Below, piece by piece: positions 1 to 19,342 of a stretch of DNA of 20,000 nucleotides (positions within the stretch are counted from its first letter, which is position 1; every line of letters starts with the position of its first letter). The DNA is taken from the IMG/VR virus record IMGVR_UViG_3300032320_000771; one strand, given 5' to 3'. The translations under genes and the position numbers were made by a program. Source of the stretch: an uncultured virus (IMG/VR IMGVR_UViG_3300032320_000771) (Duplodnaviria; Heunggongvirae; Uroviricota; Caudoviricetes). The notes under the pieces are model-generated. The model was not told where the DNA came from, ran no database searches, and saw only the letters and a program-made list of their open reading frames with translations.

Positions 1-3
1 AGC

Positions 4-28
4 AAAACCCCCGCAAGTGCAGGGGTTC
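4..28 (-). terminator. Intrinsic (Rho-independent) terminator closing the tail-gene transcript
   Basis: Minus strand reads GAACCCCTGC-ACTT-GCGGGGGTTT-T: a GC-rich ~10-bp stem (two G.U pairs), a 4-nt loop and a short T run, ~45 nt downstream of the 71..316 stop. The T tract may continue beyond the window edge. Confidence 0.75.
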
Positions 29-36
29 TACCAGTT

Positions 37-61
37 GTTACAGAAACCAACAAACTGCAAC
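37..61 (-). ncRNA. Candidate 3'UTR regulatory hairpin/sRNA with exposed loop UUUGUUGGUUU
   Basis: Minus strand GTTGCAG-TTTGTTGGTTT-CTGTAAC forms a 7-bp stem (one G.U) with an 11-nt loop. The loop is the reverse complement of leader elements at 11338-11348, 14306-14315 and 4423-4432. Function is inference. Confidence 0.4.
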
Positions 62-70
62 TTTATATTG

Positions 71-316
71 TTAGCAGAAATAAGCAACAATTAATTGTAA
101 TGCTTCTGCCATATTTGTATTAGTAGGAACAACAACAGTTTGCCCACAAAGAATTGGATCTCCTGTATATACCACACACTCTGCATCAAATACTTCTGAG
201 CAAGTTAAAGGTGATGGGCATCCAGCTGGAGTTGGACATGGTGCAGGTGATACCAAAGCATTGTCTGAACATCCACATTTTCTACATCCGCAAGTTGTAC
301 AAGTATTATGAGCCAT
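71..316 (-). CDS. Small Cys-rich virion (tail fibre-associated) protein, 81 aa
   Basis: 11 Cys, N-terminal CxxCxCxxCxC. The C-terminal half (CVVYTGDPILC...NMAEALQLIVAYFC) aligns by eye with the N-terminus of the adjacent 568-aa protein (CVIWQGPDIPC...TVSDVIYKLATELC). Confidence 0.75.
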   Translation of the reverse strand: MAHNTCTTCGCRKCGCSDNALVSPAPCPTPAGCPSPLTCSEVFDAECVVYTGDPILCGQTVVVPTNTNMAEALQLIVAYFC

Positions 317-4420: not shown

Positions 4421-4441
4421 AATTATTGGTTTTTATTTGGT

Positions 4442-5011
4442 TTAACAATTTCTACATTCCATTTTATTCAAAAGTTTAACGGCATAGTTGTATAAGCTCA
4501 TACCTTTCTGTGGCTCAAGACAAAACTCTACCTTAGACTTTGCTGCTTGAAGATACATAAAAATTAATCTAAGTTCTTCCAATCTTTGTTGGATTTTAAA
4601 TGGAGGCTCACATGCTGCAACATCTATATCACAAAGAATTTTATAATATTTATTTAGAGCACTTGTTACTCTTAAATGATTATACTCTACATATACTGTC
4701 TCATTAGGAGACACACTGTATTTTATAATATATATACCGTCTGGTAAATTAAAATAAGTTGTTCCGCAATTTGAAGTTTGCAATTGCAAATCACATGCAG
4801 TTAAAGTTATGTGACCTGTATTAACAAAATTTGTCATAGCAGTTCCTTCAATCTGATTAGAATAACCAAATCCAGGTACTGTAACATTTAGTGTAGGGCA
4901 TACTATTGGAATAGCAGGATCTGCTGTCTGGTATACGCTTGTGTCAAGTATCTTAAGAATACATTCATTCATTACTTGAGGCACCTCTAAACTTAATACA
5001 TGATTTGCCAT
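4442..5011 (-). CDS. Conserved structural protein, possible tail hub/collar subunit, 189 aa
   Basis: Beta-rich N-terminus with LPDGIYIIKYSV and a helical Cys-containing C-terminus. Follows the putative auxiliary capsid gene, where tail hub proteins lie in PhiCrAss001-type genomes (synteny inference). Confidence 0.55.
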   Translation of the reverse strand: MANHVLSLEVPQVMNECILKILDTSVYQTADPAIPIVCPTLNVTVPGFGYSNQIEGTAMTNFVNTGHITLTACDLQLQTSNCGTTYFNLPDGIYIIKYSVSPNETVYVEYNHLRVTSALNKYYKILCDIDVAACEPPFKIQQRLEELRLIFMYLQAAKSKVEFCLEPQKGMSLYNYAVKLLNKMECRNC

Positions 5012-6823: not shown

Positions 6824-7282
6824 TTATTTTAGGAAAAGTAATTTATACTTTCCGGAGTTAATTGTATCTTTTACAGTATCTAATGAATTTACAATTTCAG
6901 AGTAAGGCATTTTAGCTTGTAGGCTATTAATCATTTGATACATATCTCTAAGGTATGCAATACCTTCTTCTACTGTATTCAATGTTCTTGGAGCTGACTC
7001 TTTGTAGTCTAGTAATTTTTCTGATGCTCCTTGATATCCTTCAGCAAGATCATCTGCATGTCCAGGTAGTGCATCATATAATTCATTAAGTGCTTTATGA
7101 GCAGCATATGATCCAGCTCCTTTAACTTTTAAGTGAAGTTTATGAATACTAGTTGCAGCATTCATAAGTTCTGATACACAAGCTGCAGTCATTGTATCAC
7201 AATTAGCTGATCCAGCAGCAGGTGCGCTTGAATAAGATGCTGATGTCATTGCATCTCTTTTTAACATTCTAGCTTTTTCCAT
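6824..7282 (-). CDS. Dps/ferritin-like four-helix protein, 152 aa
   Basis: HKLHLKVKGAGSYAAHKALNELYDALPGHADDLAE matches the Dps ferroxidase signature (HW-x-VKG...H...ELY...D-x-x-AE) with W replaced by L. Size fits a ferritin-like monomer. Confidence 0.8.
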   Translation of the reverse strand: MEKARMLKRDAMTSASYSSAPAAGSANCDTMTAACVSELMNAATSIHKLHLKVKGAGSYAAHKALNELYDALPGHADDLAEGYQGASEKLLDYKESAPRTLNTVEEGIAYLRDMYQMINSLQAKMPYSEIVNSLDTVKDTINSGKYKLLFLK

Positions 7283-8781: not shown

Positions 8782-9069
8782 TTAACAATTCCACTTTCTT
8801 AAAGACTTATTAATCCTTGAGTTAGGATCATTAGCTGTCTTTGAGCTTGTTAGTTTTTTCTTCATTCCTTCCATTCTAGAGCAAAAGCTTTTTCTTCTTT
8901 TAGCATCTTTACTTCCGGCTTTTAGTTTTGATGGTTTAGTAGTAACAGCTGTCTTAAGTTTACTTCCAGGATTAGCTGCTCTATAAGAAGCTACTCCCTT
9001 AGCATTAAGACCCCCTTCTGGATTCTTACCTTCTTTTCTTTGCCAGCTTGGACTCTTATACTTTGCCAT
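8782..9069 (-). CDS. Small basic phage protein (DUF6321-like), 95 aa; start moved from 9087 to 9069
   Basis: WQRKEGKNPEGGLNAKG...KRRKSFCSRM...SRINKSLRKWNC is a widespread phage family recalled as DUF6321 (unverified). ATG at 9069 lies 2 nt after the upstream stop and removes the overlap. Confidence 0.8.
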   Translation of the reverse strand: MAKYKSPSWQRKEGKNPEGGLNAKGVASYRAANPGSKLKTAVTTKPSKLKAGSKDAKRRKSFCSRMEGMKKKLTSSKTANDPNSRINKSLRKWNC

Positions 9070-9071
9070 CT

Positions 9072-9254
9072 TTATACTTTTACACAATTATTAACCACTT
9101 TACCATTTAGCATTTTAGTACCTTTCTTAGCATAACCAGGCCAACAATTTTTACTAGAACCTCCTGCTAAAGCTTTGGGTAAACTCTTAGGTTTCTTACC
9201 GGCTTTCTTCATAGAGATAGCTATTGCTGCTTGTTGTGCTTTACTTTTTGCCAT
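9072..9254 (-). CDS. Small basic protein with CWxGY...NCV motif, 60 aa
   Basis: CWPGYAKKGTKMLNGKVVNNCV resembles the CW(K/P)GY...GK.VPNCV micro-domain common in aquatic phage proteins. N-terminal QQAAIAISMKK module. Confidence 0.75.
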   Translation of the reverse strand: MAKSKAQQAAIAISMKKAGKKPKSLPKALAGGSSKNCWPGYAKKGTKMLNGKVVNNCVKV

Positions 9255-9501
9255 TCTTTTTATTTTTAGGATAAGGGTTGTCCTTATGCCATTTTTTTGT
9301 AGCAGCCACTCCTTGTTTAATAGTCTTAGCTCTACCTTTTGCAGTAAGATCTATTGTATCCCATTCACCTTTATCTTTAGTAGGATGATTAACCATTATA
9401 TTGCCAACCTTTCCTTCACCTTTTTTTGTAGTCTTTTTATAGACTACATGTTTTTCTCCACCGGCAGTAACTTTTACTTTCTTTGTTTTTGCCTTTCCCA
9501 T
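9241..9501 (-). CDS. Small Lys-rich hypothetical protein, 86 aa
   Basis: Operon packing (2 nt after upstream stop, 14-nt overlap with next gene) and basic composition. Confidence 0.7.
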   Translation of the reverse strand: MGKAKTKKVKVTAGGEKHVVYKKTTKKGEGKVGNIMVNHPTKDKGEWDTIDLTAKGRAKTIKQGVAATKKWHKDNPYPKNKKNGKK

Positions 9502-9503
9502 TA

Positions 9504-9740
9504 TTAAAACTTTTTACCAGAAGCAATACTATTAAACTCTTTTGCTTTTTCTGCAGCAAGTTTTTTAATATCTCCCATGAGCTTAGAATTCTTTTGAATA
9601 TCAGCAGCTCTTTGTAATGTGGACATAGCAGATTCAATTTCCCATTTTCTCATCTCTGCTTTGTTACCACCTAAAATAGAAATACCAACTGAAGAACTTT
9701 TCTTAGCTGGTGTTGATTTAGTTGTTTTTTTAATTGCCAT
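9504..9740 (-). CDS. Small basic helical hypothetical protein, 78 aa
   Basis: Operon packing. KWEIESAMSTLQRAADIQKNSKLM helical segment and histone-tail-like N-terminus (KKTTKSTPAKK). Confidence 0.72.
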   Translation of the reverse strand: MAIKKTTKSTPAKKSSSVGISILGGNKAEMRKWEIESAMSTLQRAADIQKNSKLMGDIKKLAAEKAKEFNSIASGKKF

Positions 9741-9742
9741 AA

Positions 9743-10081
9743 CTATGCTTTTTTAACTCTTCTTCCCATTCCTACTCTTGACTTCTCAGCTTTCTTAGCA
9801 GCTAGTTTAGAAGGAGATAATTCATATTTTGTTTTTGGTGTATCTTTAGATACTCTTTTTGTAGGCCGGCAGTATTCATTTTTACCACCGGCACCACAAG
9901 CTTTTCCTGATTTAGTATCTTGCCACTTTTCTGCTTGCCATCTTTTTAACTCTGTACCCTTCTCAGTCTTTCTAACTTGCCCTTTACCTTTACGGCATTT
10001 GGCAATGGCTTGAGAGGCTCTAGCAGAAGGAAACACAGCATACCGTGCTTTTACACTATGATAGCAAGAATCTTTAGGCAT
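9743..10081 (-). CDS. Small basic Cys-containing protein (DUF5872-like), 112 aa
   Basis: KDSCYHSVKARYAVFPSARAS..KCRK plus LKRW..EKW...CG...YCRPTKRVSKDTPKT, motifs recalled from a phage/giant-virus family (DUF5872, unverified). Confidence 0.78.
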   Translation of the reverse strand: MPKDSCYHSVKARYAVFPSARASQAIAKCRKGKGQVRKTEKGTELKRWQAEKWQDTKSGKACGAGGKNEYCRPTKRVSKDTPKTKYELSPSKLAAKKAEKSRVGMGRRVKKA

Positions 10082-11337: not shown

Positions 11338-11349
11338 TTTGTTGGTTTT
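11338..11349 (-). promoter_or_regulatory. Leader element AAAACCAACAAA upstream of the gene-75-like start
   Basis: Lies at -14..-3 of the ATG at 11335. Recurs before the starts at 14304 and 4420. Confidence 0.5.
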
Positions 11350-11366: not shown

Positions 11367-11395
11367 AAAAAGAGGGAGCTGTTACCCTCCCTCTT
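11367..11395 (-). terminator. Intrinsic terminator after the major capsid gene
   Basis: Minus strand AAGAGGGAG-GGTAACAG-CTCCCTCTT-TTT: perfect 9-bp stem and T tract, 13 nt after the MCP stop. Confidence 0.85.
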
Positions 11396-11408: not shown

Positions 11409-13025
11409 TTATAGAGAGCCTCCGGTAATTGGGTTTCTCATAACAATTTTCAAGACTTTAGTTGGGTCTTTTACCCAAATAGCTGGCATTGTTTGAGACA
11501 TCATCACACGGTACCCGTTGAATTGTCCAGAAGACTGGAACCCTTGAGTTCTTCCCATGTAGTCCATAGTACCATTTTGATACCACCACTTCAATTGGTT
11601 ATCCCAAGAAAGTTTCAACAAGAAGATGTTATCATTAGTGTTATCAGTGATATCAAAGATGATAAAGCTATAAGAAGATAATGGGAAACCATCAATGATT
11701 GGGTTCTCAATATCATTTGTATGAACATTGTCAAATGCTGGGTTAAGAACAAACTTAACATTTGCCAAGAACGGAATTACATATGAAGTATAAGCAAATC
11801 CAAAGTTCAAGTCCATACCTTTACCAGTGATAGCACCAATATCAGCAGCCTGAATTAATAAACCTGATGCGATAGCTTCTTGTCTAATGGCCTCATTAAC
11901 CATACGCATACCACCCATACCAGTTTGTACAACCAATGATCTTTTTGGATCTGGTCCTTGGAACTCAACCTTACCATTGAAGAAGTTATAGATTTCTCCA
12001 CGGAATAAATCAAGAGTAAAGTTATTCTTGTTGTATACTCTTTTGAACGCGTTGTTCAACTGTTGCCAAAGTCCAACAGATAATCTGATATCATCTGGAC
12101 CATCTTGCTTAACTCTACCTCCTTGTCCCCACATTAAGTAAGTCTCAATATCAGAAGCAATTTTAGTAAGGTGAGCTGCTTCCATTTGAGTTAAGAATGT
12201 TCTAGAAAGATCACCATTATCAAATGCTTTTTTAACTTTATCCTTACCTAAAACTTTTACCATATCTTCTAAAGATGTGATAGAAGGATCATTAGTAGCA
12301 CCAAAGTTTCTCCAGATCTCAGTTACAGGAACTGTACCATCTGCATTCATACCACCTTTGATCATTAAGTCAGCTCTTGAAGAAACTGAATAATGTACGT
12401 GAGCCTCAGCACCACCAACAAAGTTATAGTACTCACGGAATCCAGTTCTTGTAGTGATGTCAGAGAATCTTTCACCATACTCACCTCTTGCAGATCCTTT
12501 TCTGAAGAATCTTGTTCCGTTATTTAAATATGAATTATCTAAAAACTTAGTGTTGTCATTGTTCACAAGTTGAACAGTGTAGATGTAACCATCACCAATT
12601 GGAAGGATATCCTCATCTGTAATGTACATCTCAACCCCATTGTATTTGTCATAAGTGATGATATCACCATGTCCAAACTCTCTGCGGCTTAATTTAATTC
12701 TGAAGGTTGTTCCATCAATACCTTTGAAAGTATTAAGTGGTTCAATATCCTCAAGAATGTATGGAAGATCTGTAGAGACAGGAGTCTGCCACTTATACTC
12801 TCCACGAGCATTATCTACCATGATTACATTTTTACCCCCAAATGAAGACATTTGATAAAGGGGCATTTCTACTTTTTGAGACATAGCCCAAAGGTCAACT
12901 GGACCTAAATCCATAGGTTCAGCATCTTTAAGCATGTTCACCAAGTGGTAAGAATCCACATGGGAACTTGCATTGTAAGCGGTATCCCGGAGGAATATAC
13001 CATTGTTTAAAATTGGAGTTGCCAT
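11409..13025 (-). CDS. Major capsid protein (HK97-fold, crAss-like), 538 aa
   Basis: Size, position after portal and scaffold, and crAss-type MCP motifs (EYKW, YLMWGQG, GLWQQL, VVQTGMGG, FVLNPAFD, IWVKDPT). Followed by a strong terminator. Confidence 0.9.
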   Translation of the reverse strand: MATPILNNGIFLRDTAYNASSHVDSYHLVNMLKDAEPMDLGPVDLWAMSQKVEMPLYQMSSFGGKNVIMVDNARGEYKWQTPVSTDLPYILEDIEPLNTFKGIDGTTFRIKLSRREFGHGDIITYDKYNGVEMYITDEDILPIGDGYIYTVQLVNNDNTKFLDNSYLNNGTRFFRKGSARGEYGERFSDITTRTGFREYYNFVGGAEAHVHYSVSSRADLMIKGGMNADGTVPVTEIWRNFGATNDPSITSLEDMVKVLGKDKVKKAFDNGDLSRTFLTQMEAAHLTKIASDIETYLMWGQGGRVKQDGPDDIRLSVGLWQQLNNAFKRVYNKNNFTLDLFRGEIYNFFNGKVEFQGPDPKRSLVVQTGMGGMRMVNEAIRQEAIASGLLIQAADIGAITGKGMDLNFGFAYTSYVIPFLANVKFVLNPAFDNVHTNDIENPIIDGFPLSSYSFIIFDITDNTNDNIFLLKLSWDNQLKWWYQNGTMDYMGRTQGFQSSGQFNGYRVMMSQTMPAIWVKDPTKVLKIVMRNPITGGSL

Positions 13026-13053
13026 TTTTATATTTGTTTTATTTGTTACTTAA

Positions 13054-14304
13054 TTAAAATCTTTTAAATAGATTGTTTTTTGTTAATTTTTTAGGTTGTG
13101 GTGCAGCAGACGGTCTTCTTGGTTCATCATCATATTGATTGTTTCCAGATGATGCAAGTTTTCTAGACTGTTCAGTTTTTAATTGCTTAACTACTTTTTC
13201 AGTTGCTTGCTTACTACCTTGTTCTCTAACTCTGTTTTTATAACCATTTGGATCAGCAAGTAACCAAAGTGCTTCAGCAATAAGGTCATGTCTTGGCTCT
13301 ACAAACTGATACTTCTCTAACAAGTGTCCAAGTAGGTTTGTAGGTTTACCTGAGATAGATGGATAATTAGGTTGAACTAGTCCTGAGAACAATAAGCTTT
13401 GAATCTTCTTATCAAGTTTGATTCCACCTATGCTACCTGCAGATAATGTACCATATACATTTTCTTGATAAGCTTTAGCTTGTTCAGCTTGTAGTTTTTT
13501 TCTTTCTTCTTGTTCTTCTAACTGTTGCTGTACAATTTCAGCTTGCATTGCATCAAGCTTTGGTTTAAATTGATTTGCTTTTTGCTCAAGTCTATTTAAA
13601 TCTTTCCAGTCTTGGATCTCTTCCTCAATTTCTTCAGGTGTTCCAAACTGAGTAGCATGAAGGTATTGTCTTGCAATCTCTGCTTGATCATACTCATCTG
13701 ATGGGTCAAGCTGTCTCATTTCTTCTACATGAGCAAGAGTTCTAAACAATCCTTTAAGATCAGTACCACCATCAGCAACATATTTAGCTGCAACTTGAAG
13801 TTCTTCTGGAAGTGCTTCAAAAAATTCTCTTGGTGTATCTCTTCTAACTTGTTCTTCTCTCTCTTGGAAGTTTGCTTCAAATAGTTCACGGAAATCTTTT
13901 GTTGTATATTCTTCTAGTGGTTTATCATCTTCAAAAGGAATTAAAGTTCCCTCATCTATCATTTTAATAGCTAGATCATATAAACCTGACTTATCTACTT
14001 TAGGTCTTCCCTTATTACCTGCATCTTCTTCTTGTATGATAAGTTCATTAAGCTCATTGATTGCACTTTCAATCTCTTCTGGCTTAGACTCATCTTCACT
14101 TTTTTCAGAGTTAGATTTTTTGTCAAAGAACGATGTATCTACACTTTCTTTTGAAAACATAGATTTTGGTTTCTCTTCTTCTGCAGGTAGCATTACATTT
14201 TCTGCACCTGGCATTCCAAAGATTTCATCAATATTTACATCAACTTGTCCTACCGCTGTAGAATCTTCTACCTGATTATCAGGATTTTCAATGTGTTCAC
14301 TCAT
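13054..14304 (-). CDS. Acidic scaffold-like head assembly protein, crAssphage gene-77-like, 416 aa
   Basis: Very acidic, low-complexity N-terminus, coiled-coil middle and basic C-terminal tail. Lies between portal and MCP. Confidence 0.7.
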   Translation of the reverse strand: MSEHIENPDNQVEDSTAVGQVDVNIDEIFGMPGAENVMLPAEEEKPKSMFSKESVDTSFFDKKSNSEKSEDESKPEEIESAINELNELIIQEEDAGNKGRPKVDKSGLYDLAIKMIDEGTLIPFEDDKPLEEYTTKDFRELFEANFQEREEQVRRDTPREFFEALPEELQVAAKYVADGGTDLKGLFRTLAHVEEMRQLDPSDEYDQAEIARQYLHATQFGTPEEIEEEIQDWKDLNRLEQKANQFKPKLDAMQAEIVQQQLEEQEERKKLQAEQAKAYQENVYGTLSAGSIGGIKLDKKIQSLLFSGLVQPNYPSISGKPTNLLGHLLEKYQFVEPRHDLIAEALWLLADPNGYKNRVREQGSKQATEKVVKQLKTEQSRKLASSGNNQYDDEPRRPSAAPQPKKLTKNNLFKRF

Positions 14305-14319
14305 GTTGTTGGTTTTATG

Positions 14320-14338
14320 TTATACTTTAATATACAAA
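14320..14338 (-). promoter_or_regulatory. Putative phage promoter, copy 3 (GTATATTAAAGTATA)
   Basis: Shares TATATTA-w-A-r-TAT-A with copies 1 and 2. Located in the 88-bp gap upstream of the scaffold-MCP pair. Confidence 0.45.
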
Positions 14339-14392
14339 ATAAACTTCTAAAATTTAAAAACCAAGAAAAAAAAATTGCAATATATAGCTAAG

Positions 14393-17137
14393 TTATTTCT
14401 CTTTCTTAGTATTTGTATCATATTTGTTTTTGTTTTCTTGTGCAATTTGTAGTTGTTTCTCTGCAATTTCCCTTTCTGTTTGTAGTCTTTCTCTTTCTAA
14501 CTGGTTTTTTTGGTTTTCAATAGTCATTCTATTTGTTTCTTTTTCCCTTTGTAAACCAGTTTGTTCTTGATACTGTTCTGTCTCTCTTATTTCTTTCATA
14601 GCATCTGCATAGTCTGACATTTGATTTTGGTTAACATCACCCATAGATCCATAACCAGCAGCTCTAATTTCTGCAACCAAGATATCTCTTTGTCTATCTT
14701 TTTCTTTCTCAGCAGCAACAGAATCAATTTTCATTCTCTCAATATCTTGTTGAGACTTAATTTGTTCTTGTTGCATTTGCTGTTGTTGTTGCATTTCTTG
14801 TTGTTTCTGAGCTTGTTGTTTTTGTTCAGAATCTTTAAGTACAACATTAAGAGCAGCAATTGAATCAGATTGTACTACTTTACCAAGATCATAAATAGAT
14901 GCTCCTGTAGTATTATTCTGAATAGCCATTTGTTTTAATTGCTCAAGTATAGCTCTATGATTAGCATTAGTACTGATAGCAATGTTTAAATCTCTAAGTA
15001 AAAGATCAGTACCGTTTATCTCAAAGTTTACTTTCTCATCTGCTGAAGTAATGTAAGTTAATCTTGCAGATGGTTTTGTAGAATGATAGTACTGAGCTAA
15101 GTCAGTTCTCATTTGATGCACTCTAGGCATTAGATAATCACAGTGCTGGATAAAGTATATCTCTGTTTGTGCATATGATGCTTGCATAGCTTGCTCTACT
15201 CCGGTAGCAGTAGACTGAGATAACTGTTGTCCCATTCTTTGAGGATTAACACCAATTACTTCATATGCTTGTTGCTTAAAGTAGTTAGCTAAATTAATCC
15301 TTGACATTAATCTATTTGTCTGTTCTAGATCTAACTTTTGGAAATGCTGGAAGTTTAATGCATTCTCTGTATTTGTAATAGATGTATCTAAAGGAAGAAT
15401 CTGGAAGTTCTTCATTGCAACATATGCTTTAGCATAGTTACCTTTACCCCAATCTTCACCTAATGAATGTCTAGGCAATGAGTTTTGATCAAGCATGATT
15501 ACAGTACCAAGTTCATCAATTAAGATATCTGCAATCTGATTGTTTACAATGTTGTATCCAATCTGGTATGGCTTCATTAAGTCAATTAAAGCTGTAGACT
15601 TTGTATTTCTATCTGAGAAGACAGATCCTTCTACAGGAAGCTTACATCCATATAAACTAGAATCTCCTTTGAACTGAAACTTAAGTGGTCCAATATGGTT
15701 TCTGTTTACTCCAATGTAAATAGGAGAAAAACCACCTGGGTTATTCATACCCCAGAAAGATGGTACATTAGGCCCTATCTTTACTCCTCCCCAAGTTTCA
15801 TTAATCCAAATCCAATCTATATGCTCTCCAAATAATAAATTATCTTTTGTTTTATTTTTAAAGAGTCTTGTATCATAGATTGGTTTATCTGTTATTTTAT
15901 AGTCTTCAGTAACTATATCATTAGTTACTTCACCTTCTTCTGTAATCTTTACAAGATGTCCTACTTTTCTTTGAGACTTCCAGTATGCTTGAGTTACTCT
16001 AAGTAGATATGCTGTACCTTGGTCATAATAATCTTCACCTTGAGAAAGTATTTGAGTAACAACATCTGCACCATCTAATACATTACCTGACATAAATGAT
16101 GTATACTGTCTGTATGCAAGTGAAGGCATATTTGTATTCCACTCATGTGTTTTTGTTCCGTCATAAAAAGAACCATCATTTTGAAGACCTCCAATATTAT
16201 AACCAGCAGATCTAATTGGATATACAGATTCTAATGCCTCATGTTGTTCTGTAGTAAGTAAGTGTCCGTACTTATCAATTACATCTGACACAGTAAACAT
16301 ATCTGTTTTTCCAACCCAGTTACCTTGTGATGTATATCTTACATCTGGAGACTTATGATAGAAAGTTAGAAGTGGATTCCATAACTCTACTTGATAGTCA
16401 TCCTCCATCATATGGAAATGCCAGAACTCTCTATCTGTAATAAGCATATCTCTAAACCCTCTTTCCTCTAGCTCATCCATTCTGAATCTTTCCACATCCA
16501 CTTTATGCTGATGCTCTGCCCATTGCTCTACCATTGAACGGTAATCCTTTTTAAAAAACTGTTCTATTTCTGGTAAACTTTTTAAATTCTCTGGTTGTAA
16601 TTGTTGTTTTGCTTCTTCAGAGTTAGGATCTAAACCTTGCTCAAGCATAGCAGATAACATCTTTGTTGCAGCATCTGCCATTAAAGTTTGTTCTACCATT
16701 CCTCTTTTTTGCTCTAACATTTCATTATAAGAGAAATCATCAATAGCTCTGTATGTAAGTTTAGTAGATCTTTTAGCAAACTCTGCTACTAGTACATTAA
16801 CAACATTTGGAATAATAGGGTAAAATTTTAATTCAAGTGCAGAAACATCTTCTTTTGTGAGTACTTCAATGATATCTTTATACTCATTGTTTTCTTCAAA
16901 TATATAGTCTGATCTATCAATTACTCCTTTTGCAAGTTTGTAGTTTTTTAACAATCTTCTAGCGTTTCTTCTGATTTGTTTTAATCCTTGCCATTCCAAC
17001 CAGTCTAGATTCCAAGCAGCCCATTCTTCAGTCTTATCTTTTTTAGGTAAAAACTGCAAAGGTTGGGTTATACTTCCCAACCTATTTTGTTCTACCTTAG
17101 CACCTTTCTTTAACTGTAATGCGTTATATACCTGCAT
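14393..17137 (-). CDS. Portal protein (crAss-like), 914 aa
   Basis: Directly follows terL. YPIIPNVVNVLVAE, SLxD-type ALIDLMKPYQ..YNIV, GVNPQRMGQ and TATGVEQA portal motifs, with a long Gln-rich C-terminal coiled coil. Confidence 0.9.
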   Translation of the reverse strand: MQVYNALQLKKGAKVEQNRLGSITQPLQFLPKKDKTEEWAAWNLDWLEWQGLKQIRRNARRLLKNYKLAKGVIDRSDYIFEENNEYKDIIEVLTKEDVSALELKFYPIIPNVVNVLVAEFAKRSTKLTYRAIDDFSYNEMLEQKRGMVEQTLMADAATKMLSAMLEQGLDPNSEEAKQQLQPENLKSLPEIEQFFKKDYRSMVEQWAEHQHKVDVERFRMDELEERGFRDMLITDREFWHFHMMEDDYQVELWNPLLTFYHKSPDVRYTSQGNWVGKTDMFTVSDVIDKYGHLLTTEQHEALESVYPIRSAGYNIGGLQNDGSFYDGTKTHEWNTNMPSLAYRQYTSFMSGNVLDGADVVTQILSQGEDYYDQGTAYLLRVTQAYWKSQRKVGHLVKITEEGEVTNDIVTEDYKITDKPIYDTRLFKNKTKDNLLFGEHIDWIWINETWGGVKIGPNVPSFWGMNNPGGFSPIYIGVNRNHIGPLKFQFKGDSSLYGCKLPVEGSVFSDRNTKSTALIDLMKPYQIGYNIVNNQIADILIDELGTVIMLDQNSLPRHSLGEDWGKGNYAKAYVAMKNFQILPLDTSITNTENALNFQHFQKLDLEQTNRLMSRINLANYFKQQAYEVIGVNPQRMGQQLSQSTATGVEQAMQASYAQTEIYFIQHCDYLMPRVHQMRTDLAQYYHSTKPSARLTYITSADEKVNFEINGTDLLLRDLNIAISTNANHRAILEQLKQMAIQNNTTGASIYDLGKVVQSDSIAALNVVLKDSEQKQQAQKQQEMQQQQQMQQEQIKSQQDIERMKIDSVAAEKEKDRQRDILVAEIRAAGYGSMGDVNQNQMSDYADAMKEIRETEQYQEQTGLQREKETNRMTIENQKNQLERERLQTEREIAEKQLQIAQENKNKYDTNTKKEK

Positions 17138-17143
17138 AACCTA

Positions 17144-19342
17144 TTATTTAATATTTTTAAATGCCGACCTTTTAAAGTCACCCATATTATTTCCTGTTTT
17201 ATTCCCCATGTGTTTAAACGGACTCTTATTTAATTTAAACAAATTTTCTGACTTTTGCAAGTTTTTAGCTGCTTCATCCATTATTGCTCTCCTTAAATAT
17301 CCTCTATTAGACTGTTGAATTTTCATGAATCCAACTAATGCTGCAAAAGAAACAAGTCTATCCACGTTTACTCCATCTGAATATTCCCTCATTTCTTTGA
17401 TTAACATTGGATCTGGAATTCTCTCTATACCATAAATTGTTTTAACTACAGTACCATCAGGTTTTACTTCCTGATCTAGTTCTTCTTTAGTATATTCTAT
17501 GGCATAACTTAAGAGGTGAGCTTTAAATAAAGTACCAGTATTCTTCCAACCATATTCCTGAAATACATTGTTATTTGATCCAAGATCTTTCAAGAACATA
17601 ATTTGACTTTTGGGAACCAGATACTTTTGTTTTCTTCTTTGTATCATGTATTGGATAAACAATGAAATATTGTTTTCTACAAGTGCCCATGCATTATACC
17701 ACTCTATTATTAACTCTAATTGCCTGTGTGTTTGATTTATATCATCATATCTACCACACCAGGCTGCTACTATTTTATCTTGTTCTATATATGTTTCTAT
17801 CTCTGTACCAGTATGTCTTGCTACTTCAACTGGTGCTTTCATTACATATATGGAACATAGTGATTCTGAAGTTGTTGTTTTACCTTCACCAACGGGGTCA
17901 ATAGAGGCATAGTACATACCAAATTTTATATCCTCAACCGGTCTTTCCCAAACAACTAAACATCCAGTTTTATCTTCTGTCTTTTTATTAACTGGAAATT
18001 CCATGATAGGCCTTTTATTACTTTTTGTAACTGATGGCTTACCTTCTAAGTCCGGAGATATATCTAGAAACTCATAAGCATATTCTTTTTCTTCTATCCT
18101 TCTTTCTTGTGCAGCAAGAAGATGTGGTGGGAATACAGATACTGTTCTATGTGCAAATGCTTCCCTAATGTTTCTAGGGTGCTGAGAAATCCTTAACTGG
18201 TAATCTTCTGGAGCAAGTTCTTCTTTCCATTGTTTAAACTGTTTATCCAATGCTTCTAGTGCATCTTCTACAAGTGAATTACCATAGTTATCTATGTGTG
18301 GTGGCATAGACCATTGTTCAGGAATAAACAAACCTGACAAACCAATAGTACCTTTATCATCTATTAAATCAGTTTCTACAGCATAAATATCTTTTGAAGT
18401 AGGATTCAGGATCATGTCTTTCAAAGGATTACACTGAGATAAATCACCCACAGATCCTGCAGCTATAAACATACCCGTAGTAATTAAACCAGATCTCATT
18501 GCTGGTCTCATATACTCATATGTCTGATCCATCTTAGGAGCAATACCTCCCTCTTCATGAAAGAAGAACTTTACCGGACCCCCTACACCATTTGTTGGAT
18601 CTTTCTCAAAGGACATACCTTGCATAGTTCCCTTGAGACCAACCTCATTCTTTCTATCTCCTTTTCTAACTTCTATCTTCTGTTGCCACATCATTACCTT
18701 GTGTGGAGTCATTGGTCTATACCAAGCAGTATGTTCATTTAAGAATGCAGCATATTCATCTAAGAATTTCCAAGAACCTTTCTCATTTATATAGTCTTTA
18801 AGACTTGCTCCTATCTTCAATGTAACCCCAGCTTCAAACCAAATTTGATTTAAAAGCTTAGCCATATGAAAATAAGAAGAAGCTATCTGACGTTTTTTAA
18901 GAATAGCTACATGCTTGTAGTTGAGTTCTGCCAGTATTTCATAGAGGGCCATGTGATACTGGGCATCCCGTATTTTGGCAAAGTCAAAAATTTGTTGCTC
19001 CTTATCAAATATTGGTAAGAAGTTAAGCCACATGTAGTAGTCTCTTGTAAGATACCAGGTCTTATCTGCTGATTTGTAGATAACTCCTCTCCTACATCTG
19101 AGCTTTTGCTCATCCCAGTAATTGATAAAATCTTTGGATTTAAAAGGAGAGTCGCAGTAATATCCATTTTTTCTGAATCCTCTTGATTCAAAATTAAATA
19201 ATAAGCTAGTGTCATCAAAGTTATATTTACCTGGTTCTTTAAATAAGTCTCTTACAAACTGTGCAAACTCTTCTCTTGAAGAAAAGTCTGTAACAGTCCA
19301 AGTACCATTATCATAGGTTGGTATGTTTTCAAATATCTCCAT
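17144..19342 (-). CDS. terL: Terminase large subunit, 732 aa
   Basis: Walker A-like ILKKRQIASSY, Walker B FFFHEEGG, RNase H-like nuclease YYASIDPVGEG, ALVENN and NVDRLVSF. Lies upstream of portal. Confidence 0.92.
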   Translation of the reverse strand: MEIFENIPTYDNGTWTVTDFSSREEFAQFVRDLFKEPGKYNFDDTSLLFNFESRGFRKNGYYCDSPFKSKDFINYWDEQKLRCRRGVIYKSADKTWYLTRDYYMWLNFLPIFDKEQQIFDFAKIRDAQYHMALYEILAELNYKHVAILKKRQIASSYFHMAKLLNQIWFEAGVTLKIGASLKDYINEKGSWKFLDEYAAFLNEHTAWYRPMTPHKVMMWQQKIEVRKGDRKNEVGLKGTMQGMSFEKDPTNGVGGPVKFFFHEEGGIAPKMDQTYEYMRPAMRSGLITTGMFIAAGSVGDLSQCNPLKDMILNPTSKDIYAVETDLIDDKGTIGLSGLFIPEQWSMPPHIDNYGNSLVEDALEALDKQFKQWKEELAPEDYQLRISQHPRNIREAFAHRTVSVFPPHLLAAQERRIEEKEYAYEFLDISPDLEGKPSVTKSNKRPIMEFPVNKKTEDKTGCLVVWERPVEDIKFGMYYASIDPVGEGKTTTSESLCSIYVMKAPVEVARHTGTEIETYIEQDKIVAAWCGRYDDINQTHRQLELIIEWYNAWALVENNISLFIQYMIQRRKQKYLVPKSQIMFLKDLGSNNNVFQEYGWKNTGTLFKAHLLSYAIEYTKEELDQEVKPDGTVVKTIYGIERIPDPMLIKEMREYSDGVNVDRLVSFAALVGFMKIQQSNRGYLRRAIMDEAAKNLQKSENLFKLNKSPFKHMGNKTGNNMGDFKRSAFKNIK

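Follow-up and report, generated by a model that had tools for sequence, protein, structure and literature searches.

A stretch of DNA of 20,000 nucleotides (nt) from an uncultured virus (IMG/VR record IMGVR_UViG_3300032320_000771), analyzed over its whole length and called the window here, closes on its minus strand with a small RNA hairpin followed by a transcription terminator. The question raised by this locus is whether the G/U-rich loop of the hairpin serves as an antisense sequence for the leaders of the phage's own virion genes; the loop was found to be complementary to a C/A-rich sequence, AAACCAACAA(A), that stands just 5′ of the ATGs of three open reading frames (ORFs) of 341, 416 and 49 amino acids (aa). 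All long ORFs of the window are on the minus strand, and with a terminase large subunit (17144-19342) and a portal (14393-17137), both named by PHROGs and Pfam, as well as a crAss-type major capsid protein (MCP; 11409-13025; PF23898, E = 1e-30, PHROGs and Pfam), the window is, by its gene assignments, the structural (late) operon of a crAss-like phage.

Hairpin and terminator as a selected RNA structure

The module is located 3′ of an 81-aa Cys-rich gene (71..316, minus strand; stop codon 71-73), the terminal gene of the operon in the source phage. After a gap of 9 nt (9-12 nt across the clade), the minus strand reads into the 5′ arm GUUGCAG (55..61), the 11-nt loop UUUGUUGGUUU that represents the candidate seed (44..54), the 3′ arm CUGUAAC (37..43), a short A/C-rich linker, AACU (33..36), and a terminator hairpin with a 14-bp G+C-rich stem (1..32). 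The latter has the features of an intrinsic (Rho-independent) terminator, namely a G+C-rich stem-loop and a U-tract on the transcribed strand; the U-tract is cut by the window edge, where the letters past the stem are UUUUGCU, and in relatives it reads GGGGGUUUUG(C/U)UUUU. The minimum free energy (MFE) structure returned by RNAfold consisted of exactly these two hairpins (−30.3 kcal/mol, z = −4.92), with none of 200 shuffled sequences as stable. Thus, the original prediction, which was made from the letters of the window and placed a GUUGCAG-loop-CUGUAAC hairpin plus terminator after the 81-aa gene, was right in both coordinates and sequence. An Rfam cmscan over the whole window gave no matches.

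Relatives of the 81-aa protein, which carries the Cys-rich stretch CTTCGCRKCGC... and has no Pfam or PHROG family matches, were detected at 43 IMG/VR loci (43-93% identity). The hairpin plus terminator was found downstream at all 43 of these loci, at 35 by a substitution-tolerant search and at 8 as loop-indel variants, and in some relatives one or more additional genes lie between the 81-aa gene and the hairpin. The exact 25-mer of the hairpin was present in 21 IMG/VR contigs, some with an 81-aa protein of only 56% identity. Among 29 distinct close variants the hairpin stem (helix 1) was paired at 100%, and three of its seven pairs varied on one side only, always via G·U on the sense strand. 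A stem-anchored gapped scan of IMG/VR yielded at least 123 matches; among the matches listed, 21 had a TTGTTGG loop and were followed by a terminator as judged by eye, and the others appeared to be unrelated and to lie mostly in coding sequence. The element was also present in 4 of 4 further near-complete genomes, with the loop longer by one G; of the four 18-kb stretches examined from these genomes, three had it at the sole terminator reported by a simple finder. Loop length across relatives was 10-15 nt.

To reach diverse lineages, 80 loci were fetched via alignment of a 221-aa protein encoded two genes downstream, and were searched with a covariance model built from the close variants. The sense-strand element was identified in 75 of the 80 loci, in addition to the window, and at the syntenic place in the isolate Lbo-JY46 (E = 3.8e-5). 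The five loci without a model match included (i) L508, where a hairpin was seen by eye; (ii) L515 and L553, which come without upstream sequence; (iii) L529, with no element; and (iv) L511, with a variant in which AAA is paired to UUU and only GUUGG is left in the loop. The loop core UUGUUGG was kept in 72 of the 75 model matches, the loop being much better conserved than the neighbouring proteins, and between lineages the stems are fully replaced around this same loop (GUCACG/CGUGAC, AAAUGG/CCAUUU, AGGAGG/CCUCC, and AAUCCUGU/ACAGGAUU). In the model-based alignment (94 rows, 67 distinct, of which 17 rows are reverse-strand or second terminator matches, and which is fitted to the structure), each of the 7 hairpin pairs and each of the 14 terminator pairs had changes on both sides, helix 1 was paired at 96.2%, and the observed covariation score was attained by none of 500 shuffles. 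Raw hairpins listed independently of the model displayed the same stem replacement. G·U and U·G pairs were common (e.g., 21, 13, and 12 rows at three pairs), non-pairs were limited to 0-5 rows per pair, and A·C was not tolerated; the frequent G·U and rare non-pairs mark the selected structure as RNA of the operon's sense strand. The conservation of loop and stem that the original prediction had proposed to look for in relatives was therefore found. Overall, these comparisons across relatives show that the hairpin and terminator are under RNA-level selection with a nearly invariant loop sequence. They give good support to the element as a new structured RNA, spread over a large clade of crAss-like phages.

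The module shares its terminator with the upstream mRNA and has no promoter of its own in the clade, and differing genes end directly 5′ of it in relatives. When 12 representatives were folded, the mean probability of UUGUUGG being unpaired was 0.62-0.97 in nine and 0.04, 0.16, and 0.29 in the other three; together with the conservation of the core, this prediction of a mostly unpaired motif is consistent with a conserved single-stranded seed of the kind found in small RNAs (sRNAs) derived from 3′ untranslated regions (UTRs). An alternative fold proposed earlier, in which pairing of loop to linker would hide the seed and act as a switch, is unsupported: it is confined to the close subclade in which an ACAAC-type linker is kept, the linker being unconserved in the distant lineages, and it is at odds with the mostly unpaired state predicted for the motif. 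An H-type pseudoknot was judged sterically impossible by reasoning, as there is no linker between stem 1 and the would-be second stem.

The C/A-rich leader motif and its loss together with the hairpin

The three leader copies of the motif (the tags) are located on the minus strand at fixed short distances from start codons. The longest, AAACCAACAAA, covers 11338..11348, or −13 to −3 relative to the ATG (11335) of the 341-aa gene that follows MCP (10-mer copy at 11339-11348). The second, AAACCAACAA, covers 14306..14315, or −11 to −2 of the ATG (14304) of the 416-aa gene that separates portal from MCP. The third, AAACCAATAA / AAACCAAUAA, covers 4423..4432, or −12 to −3 of the ATG (4420) of the 49-aa ORF, and is accompanied by a second, partial copy, AAACCAAAUAA, at 4433-4443. 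Complementarity to the loop amounts to 11 of 11 nt for the 341-aa leader, 10 of 10 for the 416-aa leader, and 10 nt with one G·U ahead of the 49-aa ORF, all as originally predicted in coordinates and counts. The consensus AAACCAAYAA occurs four times in the window where 0.33 copies are expected, a number attained by none of 200 shuffles. Three of the copies stand 2-3 nt 5′ of ATGs, and the fourth is on the plus strand within the loop itself (44-53). The latter could in principle be the leader of a plus-strand gene; this was excluded, since no plus-strand gene is located 3′ of it and the called genes here and in relatives are all on the hairpin's sense strand.

Homologous leaders were inspected for the two head genes using the best 80 loci for each. 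For the 341-aa gene, ACCAAC was found within 85 nt around the start in 75 of 80 loci, with the full AAACCAACAA in 71 of these 75 and at least 2 copies in 35; the five loci without ACCAAC comprised three truncated at the contig end and two with AAACCAAACAA. For the 416-aa gene, the motif was detected in 79 of 80 loci, the single miss being truncated. The background of ACCAAC in adjacent coding sequence is 0.2-0.6 per kb, and the terminator and spacer sequence around the leader motifs varies freely among the homolog loci. A terminator-like hairpin after the MCP gene (11367..11395, minus strand) lies about 30 nt upstream of the 341-aa ATG, which leaves no space for a promoter between the two; hence, the 341-aa gene is probably translated from transcripts that read through this hairpin. 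The AAACCAAACAA leaders (L123 and L138) were considered as a case of loop-leader covariation and rejected, as they are paired with an ordinary loop. The tag was also considered as a general leader motif of Bacteroidota and rejected: in 8 arbitrary genomes of Bacteroidota, picked solely via chance presence of the hairpin 17-mer and not necessarily those of hosts, the AAACCAACAAA 11-mer was found 109 times and its reversed control 95 times, and 4 of 30 inspected sites were near a possible start.

The relationship between hairpin and tags was further apparent from their joint decay. Both head-gene leaders were read, with MCP as the anchor, in 18 further contigs plus G020, G021, and G052. Hairpin and tags were both present in the 16 sampled genomes outside one clade, with exceptions of detail only (leaders outside the locus in G023, and a different gene after MCP in G027 and G034). 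Every incomplete system found is located in one small clade consisting of G025, G052, and the group G020/G036/G037. In this group the tags are absent from the two head genes of all three members, and the hairpin has a weakened stem and the loop GUUUGUGAGUUUU in G020, an unrecognisable loop in G036, and is missing from G037. The tag ahead of the 49-aa ORF homolog survives within the clade only in G020. The terminator was retained in all three genomes; its survival where the hairpin decays indicates that the hairpin is a separable module. An 11-bp match between the G020 variant loop and the leader of a 189-aa homolog was treated as chance, since it is absent in G036 and G037. In an IQ-TREE analysis of MCP, G025 branches as the sister of G020/G036/G037 (support 100/98), and their joint sister is G024 (99/97), in which hairpin and tags are both present; a FastTree that included G052, the support values of which were not inspected, placed it inside the same clade. 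This confinement of all incomplete systems to one clade suggests that the loop and leaders belong to one system. The clustering of the defects fits a two-part system under relaxed selection, with support from these genomes that is moderate because the clustering corresponds to one or few evolutionary events.

Proposed antisense pairing and its rivals

We regard an antisense role of the loop on the leaders as the best single explanation of these comparative data, at a confidence somewhat short of even. The module, about 70 nt long, closes the late virion-gene operon and has a 7-bp hairpin that displays the G/U-rich loop UUUGUUGGUU, followed by a short linker and the operon terminator. By the antisense account, after termination and perhaps 5′ trimming the module would persist either as the tail of the late mRNA or on its own as a stable 3′-derived sRNA, and the loop would base-pair with the C/A-rich tag (A)AAACCAACAA at 2-13 nt upstream of the start codons of the 416-aa gene, the 341-aa gene, and the 49-aa ORF. 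The most likely effect would be lower translation of the head-assembly genes after transcription has reached the operon end, because the duplex would cover the site where the 30S subunit must bind; such 'anti-enhancer' action, similar to that of the enterobacterial sRNA GcvB, might be exerted in trans, or in cis within one polycistronic transcript. The larger proposal of a self-contained translational regulon, in which the late operon would end in an 'anti-leader' RNA that pairs with a phage-specific C/A-rich tag on head genes and feeds back on the synthesis of scaffold-like and auxiliary head proteins, is held a shade more tentatively.

The strength of the complementarity was measured by ranking leaders according to RNAduplex energy against the loop, with 200 composition-preserving shuffled loops as the control. 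In the complete relatives G3 and G2, both head-gene leaders, which belong to the same orthologous genes, rank first and second or third. In the distant lineage G017 (portal 32% identical), the top-ranked partner of the local motif UUUGUUGGUUGUU is the leader of the gene that separates portal from MCP, with a predicted duplex of 12 bp, one of them G·U, at −13.9 kcal/mol that was equaled by 8 of 200 shuffles; the post-MCP gene is third. Lbo-JY46 keeps UUUGUUGGUUG directly 5′ of the terminator at the syntenic place, has C/A-rich leaders that lack the CC core ahead of the same genes, and again has the post-MCP gene top-ranked, with a 14-nt motif. Overall, the complementarity appears real but modest, beyond chance by these rankings and in part a product of U/G-rich against A/C-rich composition.

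Several observations weigh against the antisense account. In G3 and G2 the best leader energy was equaled by 7 of 200 shuffled loops, which is of modest significance; in G025 49 of 200 did equally well; and in Lbo-JY46 the leader match was no better than that of shuffled loops (101 of 200 and 189 of 200), and the AU-only stem is absent from the MFE fold. No compensatory loop-leader change was found among the loops and leaders compared, the cores being invariant on both sides, and variants at the loop edge (GUUGUUGG... and ...GGUUA) are unmirrored in their leaders. The tag is present on only 2-4 leaders per genome. The loop is conserved more than its proposed targets, which possibly points to another partner. 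Finally, two members of the decaying clade do not show the joint pattern: (i) G025 has a canonical hairpin and no tags on the two head genes; and (ii) G052 has AAACCAAC on both head genes, and no hairpin was found anywhere in its 32.7-kb contig (estimated completeness 27%), the syntenic site included. The earlier proposal that a phage RNA tunes translation by loop-leader pairing is thus partly supported, by the sense-strand hairpin, the terminator, the conserved leader motif, and the joint decay; for base pairing itself, where natural compensatory change was looked for and not found, the decay in one clade is the sole indirect support.

The same observations lend themselves to an explanation that we consider less probable and still a serious contender, in which the loop would be the binding site of a phage or host RNA-binding protein that acts, for example, on mRNA 3′-end stability, processing, or read-through to the following operon; the tags would be independent translation enhancers and the complementarity compositional. 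Such a site would account for a loop that is invariant where the targets are weak or absent, as in Lbo-JY46, G025, and G035 (MCP 27% identical), and for the placement of the hairpin, which is always 4-10 nt 5′ of the terminator and just upstream of a promoter-like block of the next operon. The ease with which shuffled U/G loops match A-rich leaders, also a point against antisense pairing, and the Lbo-JY46 leaders without the CC core fit it as well. However, no candidate protein was found, and the exact G positions of the loop and C positions of the tag agree over 10-11 nt at three sites. The grouping of hairpin and tag defects in one clade is unexpected for independent functions, and the persistence of the terminator in genomes without the hairpin indicates that termination itself does not depend on the hairpin.

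If the loop instead paired with some other transcript, of the host or of the phage, the match to the head leaders would be secondary; this reading is judged unlikely. The deep conservation of the loop over lineages with differing leaders is in keeping with such a partner, as are the other tagged leaders of complete relatives such as G3, where these include the 65-aa and 72-aa genes on the other strand block. Searches of bacterial genomes weigh against it: the 11-mer was at control frequency in the 8 arbitrary Bacteroidota genomes, and the hairpin 17-mer was near chance in GTDB genomes (86 matches), with the full element in none of the 80 loci fetched. The same GTDB scan led us to reject the element as a mimic of a clustered regularly interspaced short palindromic repeat (CRISPR), that is an RNA anti-CRISPR, or as a host copy, the 86 matches being single and no locus having more than one.

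Less probable again is a purely cis-acting structural 3′ element that would provide exonuclease protection or better termination, with the loop constrained by folding alone. Its position directly 5′ of the terminator in every lineage, the lack of its own promoter in the clade, and the upstream gene that ends only 9-12 nt before the hairpin are all as such an element would have them; nevertheless, a protective hairpin needs no invariant 10-nt loop on a fully changeable stem, and the terminator was kept in lineages that lost the hairpin. Very improbable is a DNA-level site, with AAACCAACAAA/TTTGTTGGTTT bound as double strand by a phage regulator in either orientation, for even though the same 10-11 bp occur in both orientations and correlated loss equally fits a shared DNA-binding factor, the inverted repeat covaries as sense-strand RNA with common G·U and U·G that are mismatches in DNA or on the other strand, and the leader copies stand at a fixed distance from start codons, not promoters.

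The crAss-like phages are among the most abundant phages known, and to our knowledge their post-transcriptional control is essentially unstudied; we know of no base-pairing sRNA regulon in Crassvirales. Among the papers listed by literature searches (one of them swamped by 'crassa' matches), none dealt with an sRNA or an RNA element at an operon end in crAss-like phages. If true, the proposed regulon would be the first of its kind in this order, acting on leaders without Shine-Dalgarno sequences. If the loop-leader pairing holds, it would provide a compact, testable case of a virus that sets its own head-protein stoichiometry by RNA, a handle on translation from C/A-rich, Shine-Dalgarno-less leaders, and a sequence marker for the phage clade. 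Even without pairing, the locus presents a new structured RNA with an invariant loop that needs a partner.

Genomic surroundings and known systems

In INPHARED, megablast with the window and tblastn with the 341-aa protein gave no matches, and tblastn with the portal recovered only distant isolates at 34% identity or less, the closest being Leptolyngbya phage Lbo-JY46 (33.6%), with Cellulophaga, Flavobacterium, and gut crAss phages farther away. The Bacteroidota host assumed earlier is presumptive; the closest isolate is annotated as a Leptolyngbya phage. A literature search found no paper on Lbo-JY46. Two further features of the window were noted. On the minus strand at 8782-10081 is a row of small genes with DUF6321 and DUF5872 that match the C-terminal portions of longer PHROG families (phrog_727 and others), which suggests either a large virion protein in pieces or modular small proteins. 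A 152-aa DUF5856 protein (6824-7282, minus strand) matches the PHROG 'starvation-inducible transcriptional regulator / DNA binding protein' (E = 1.7e-21) and is encoded amid the virion genes.

Promoter-like blocks were seen at several places. Directly past the terminator in relatives, beyond window position 1 on the minus strand, is the conserved block TTTTATT(N2)TATATTTG(T/C)TAAAGT (e.g., L006:3310-3372), in which TATATTTG fits the TAnnTTTG −7 box of Bacteroidota promoters; a second block, TTTATTTTTAGTATATTAATTAGTATAGT, is immediately 5′ of the ATG of a 193-aa gene. By these motifs, the block past the terminator looks like the promoter region of the next co-directional operon, which in relatives encodes proteins of 193, 221, 350, 1830 aa and onward. 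In most relatives, another conserved block, (T)TTATTT(N)GTATATTAAAGTATAAC, is positioned 5′ of the tag of the 416-aa gene (window 14316-14392, minus strand; L145-L224).

In Lbo-JY46 (PP438436.1; L359, L367), TAnnTTTG-like boxes were observed ahead of the gene after portal (TAACTTTG) and ahead of portal (TAATTTTG), with further examples, TACCTTTG and TATCTTTG, in intergenic regions. As these boxes are presumably the Bacteroidota-type promoter element, the cyanobacterial host assignment of this isolate may deserve a second look. In the same lineage, for which only 7 and 1 relatives were found in two expansions in IMG/VR, UUUGUUGGUUG is located in an intergenic region of about 400 nt that opens with another terminator (L367:29492-29901, L471:890-1280) and includes a conserved upstream block, ACTCAAAGTTACGA..TTTTTTTCG.CATTTCCAAATTT; L471 carries a second TTTGTTGGTT copy 128 nt upstream. 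From this layout, the region may give rise to a longer non-coding RNA with transcription of its own. An extra 200-450 nt was found to separate MCP from the following head gene in G020 (12730-13135), G021 (18895-19053), G025, and G052, including a shared stretch, ..ACAACCTTGACGTGGTTTAGGAGCTT... Part of the G021 stretch resembles the T-arm of a transfer RNA (tRNA); ARAGORN calls no tRNA there.

Among the known systems compared, work on the crAss-like phage phi14:2 reports host RNA polymerase-dependent middle/late promoters upstream of the homologs of gp092 and portal (Drobysheva et al., bioRxiv 10.1101/2020.03.07.982082). The 416-aa gene is the positional counterpart of gp092, and its conserved upstream block GTATATTAAAGTATAAC is, judging from the text of that paper, probably a middle/late promoter of the type its authors describe for gp092 homologs. 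In contrast to the account of phi14:2, the present phage has a leader tag and an operon-end hairpin, neither of which is described in the paper's text. The phi14:2 genome has no TTGTTGGTT, and the matches to this sequence in phi17:2 and csAssE-Sib are outside hairpin-terminator contexts.

Among RNA regulators, the 3′UTR-derived sRNAs of the CpxQ, SdhX, DapZ, SroC, and MicL type are bacterial, mostly Hfq-dependent, and released by RNase E. The module resembles them in sharing a terminator with the upstream mRNA, in having no promoter of its own in the clade, and in carrying a conserved seed 5′ of the terminator hairpin. CopA/CopT, RNA I/RNA II, P22 sar, and lambda OOP are cis-encoded, fully complementary antisense RNAs; as in these, the putative antisense sequence is held in a hairpin loop suited to rapid initial pairing, whereas the phage element lies 4-14 kb away from the leaders it might target and is complementary to them over 10-11 nt only. 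SgrS, which masks an S1-dependent enhancer of manY, differs in the AU-rich make-up of that enhancer and in belonging to an Hfq-dependent system of enterobacteria. Closer still is GcvB of enterobacteria, in which, according to the text of PMC7534054 (citing Sharma et al. 2007 and Yang et al. 2014), a G/U-rich seed masks C/A-rich translational enhancers (gltI, yifK) and thereby lowers translation. In both RNAs, a G/U-rich single-stranded seed has its complement in C/A-rich elements that immediately precede several start codons. GcvB is an independent sRNA of the chromosome that depends on Hfq, has a dedicated promoter, and carries its seed in a linear region, whereas the predicted seed of the phage element is the loop of a 7-bp hairpin at an operon end and its candidate targets are the phage's own head genes. 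Homology to the GcvB family was not found, consistent with the empty Rfam scan of the window. The masking of C/A-rich enhancers by GcvB, insofar as the source text describes it, would therefore represent the closest working analogue of this element, a likeness in action and not in descent.

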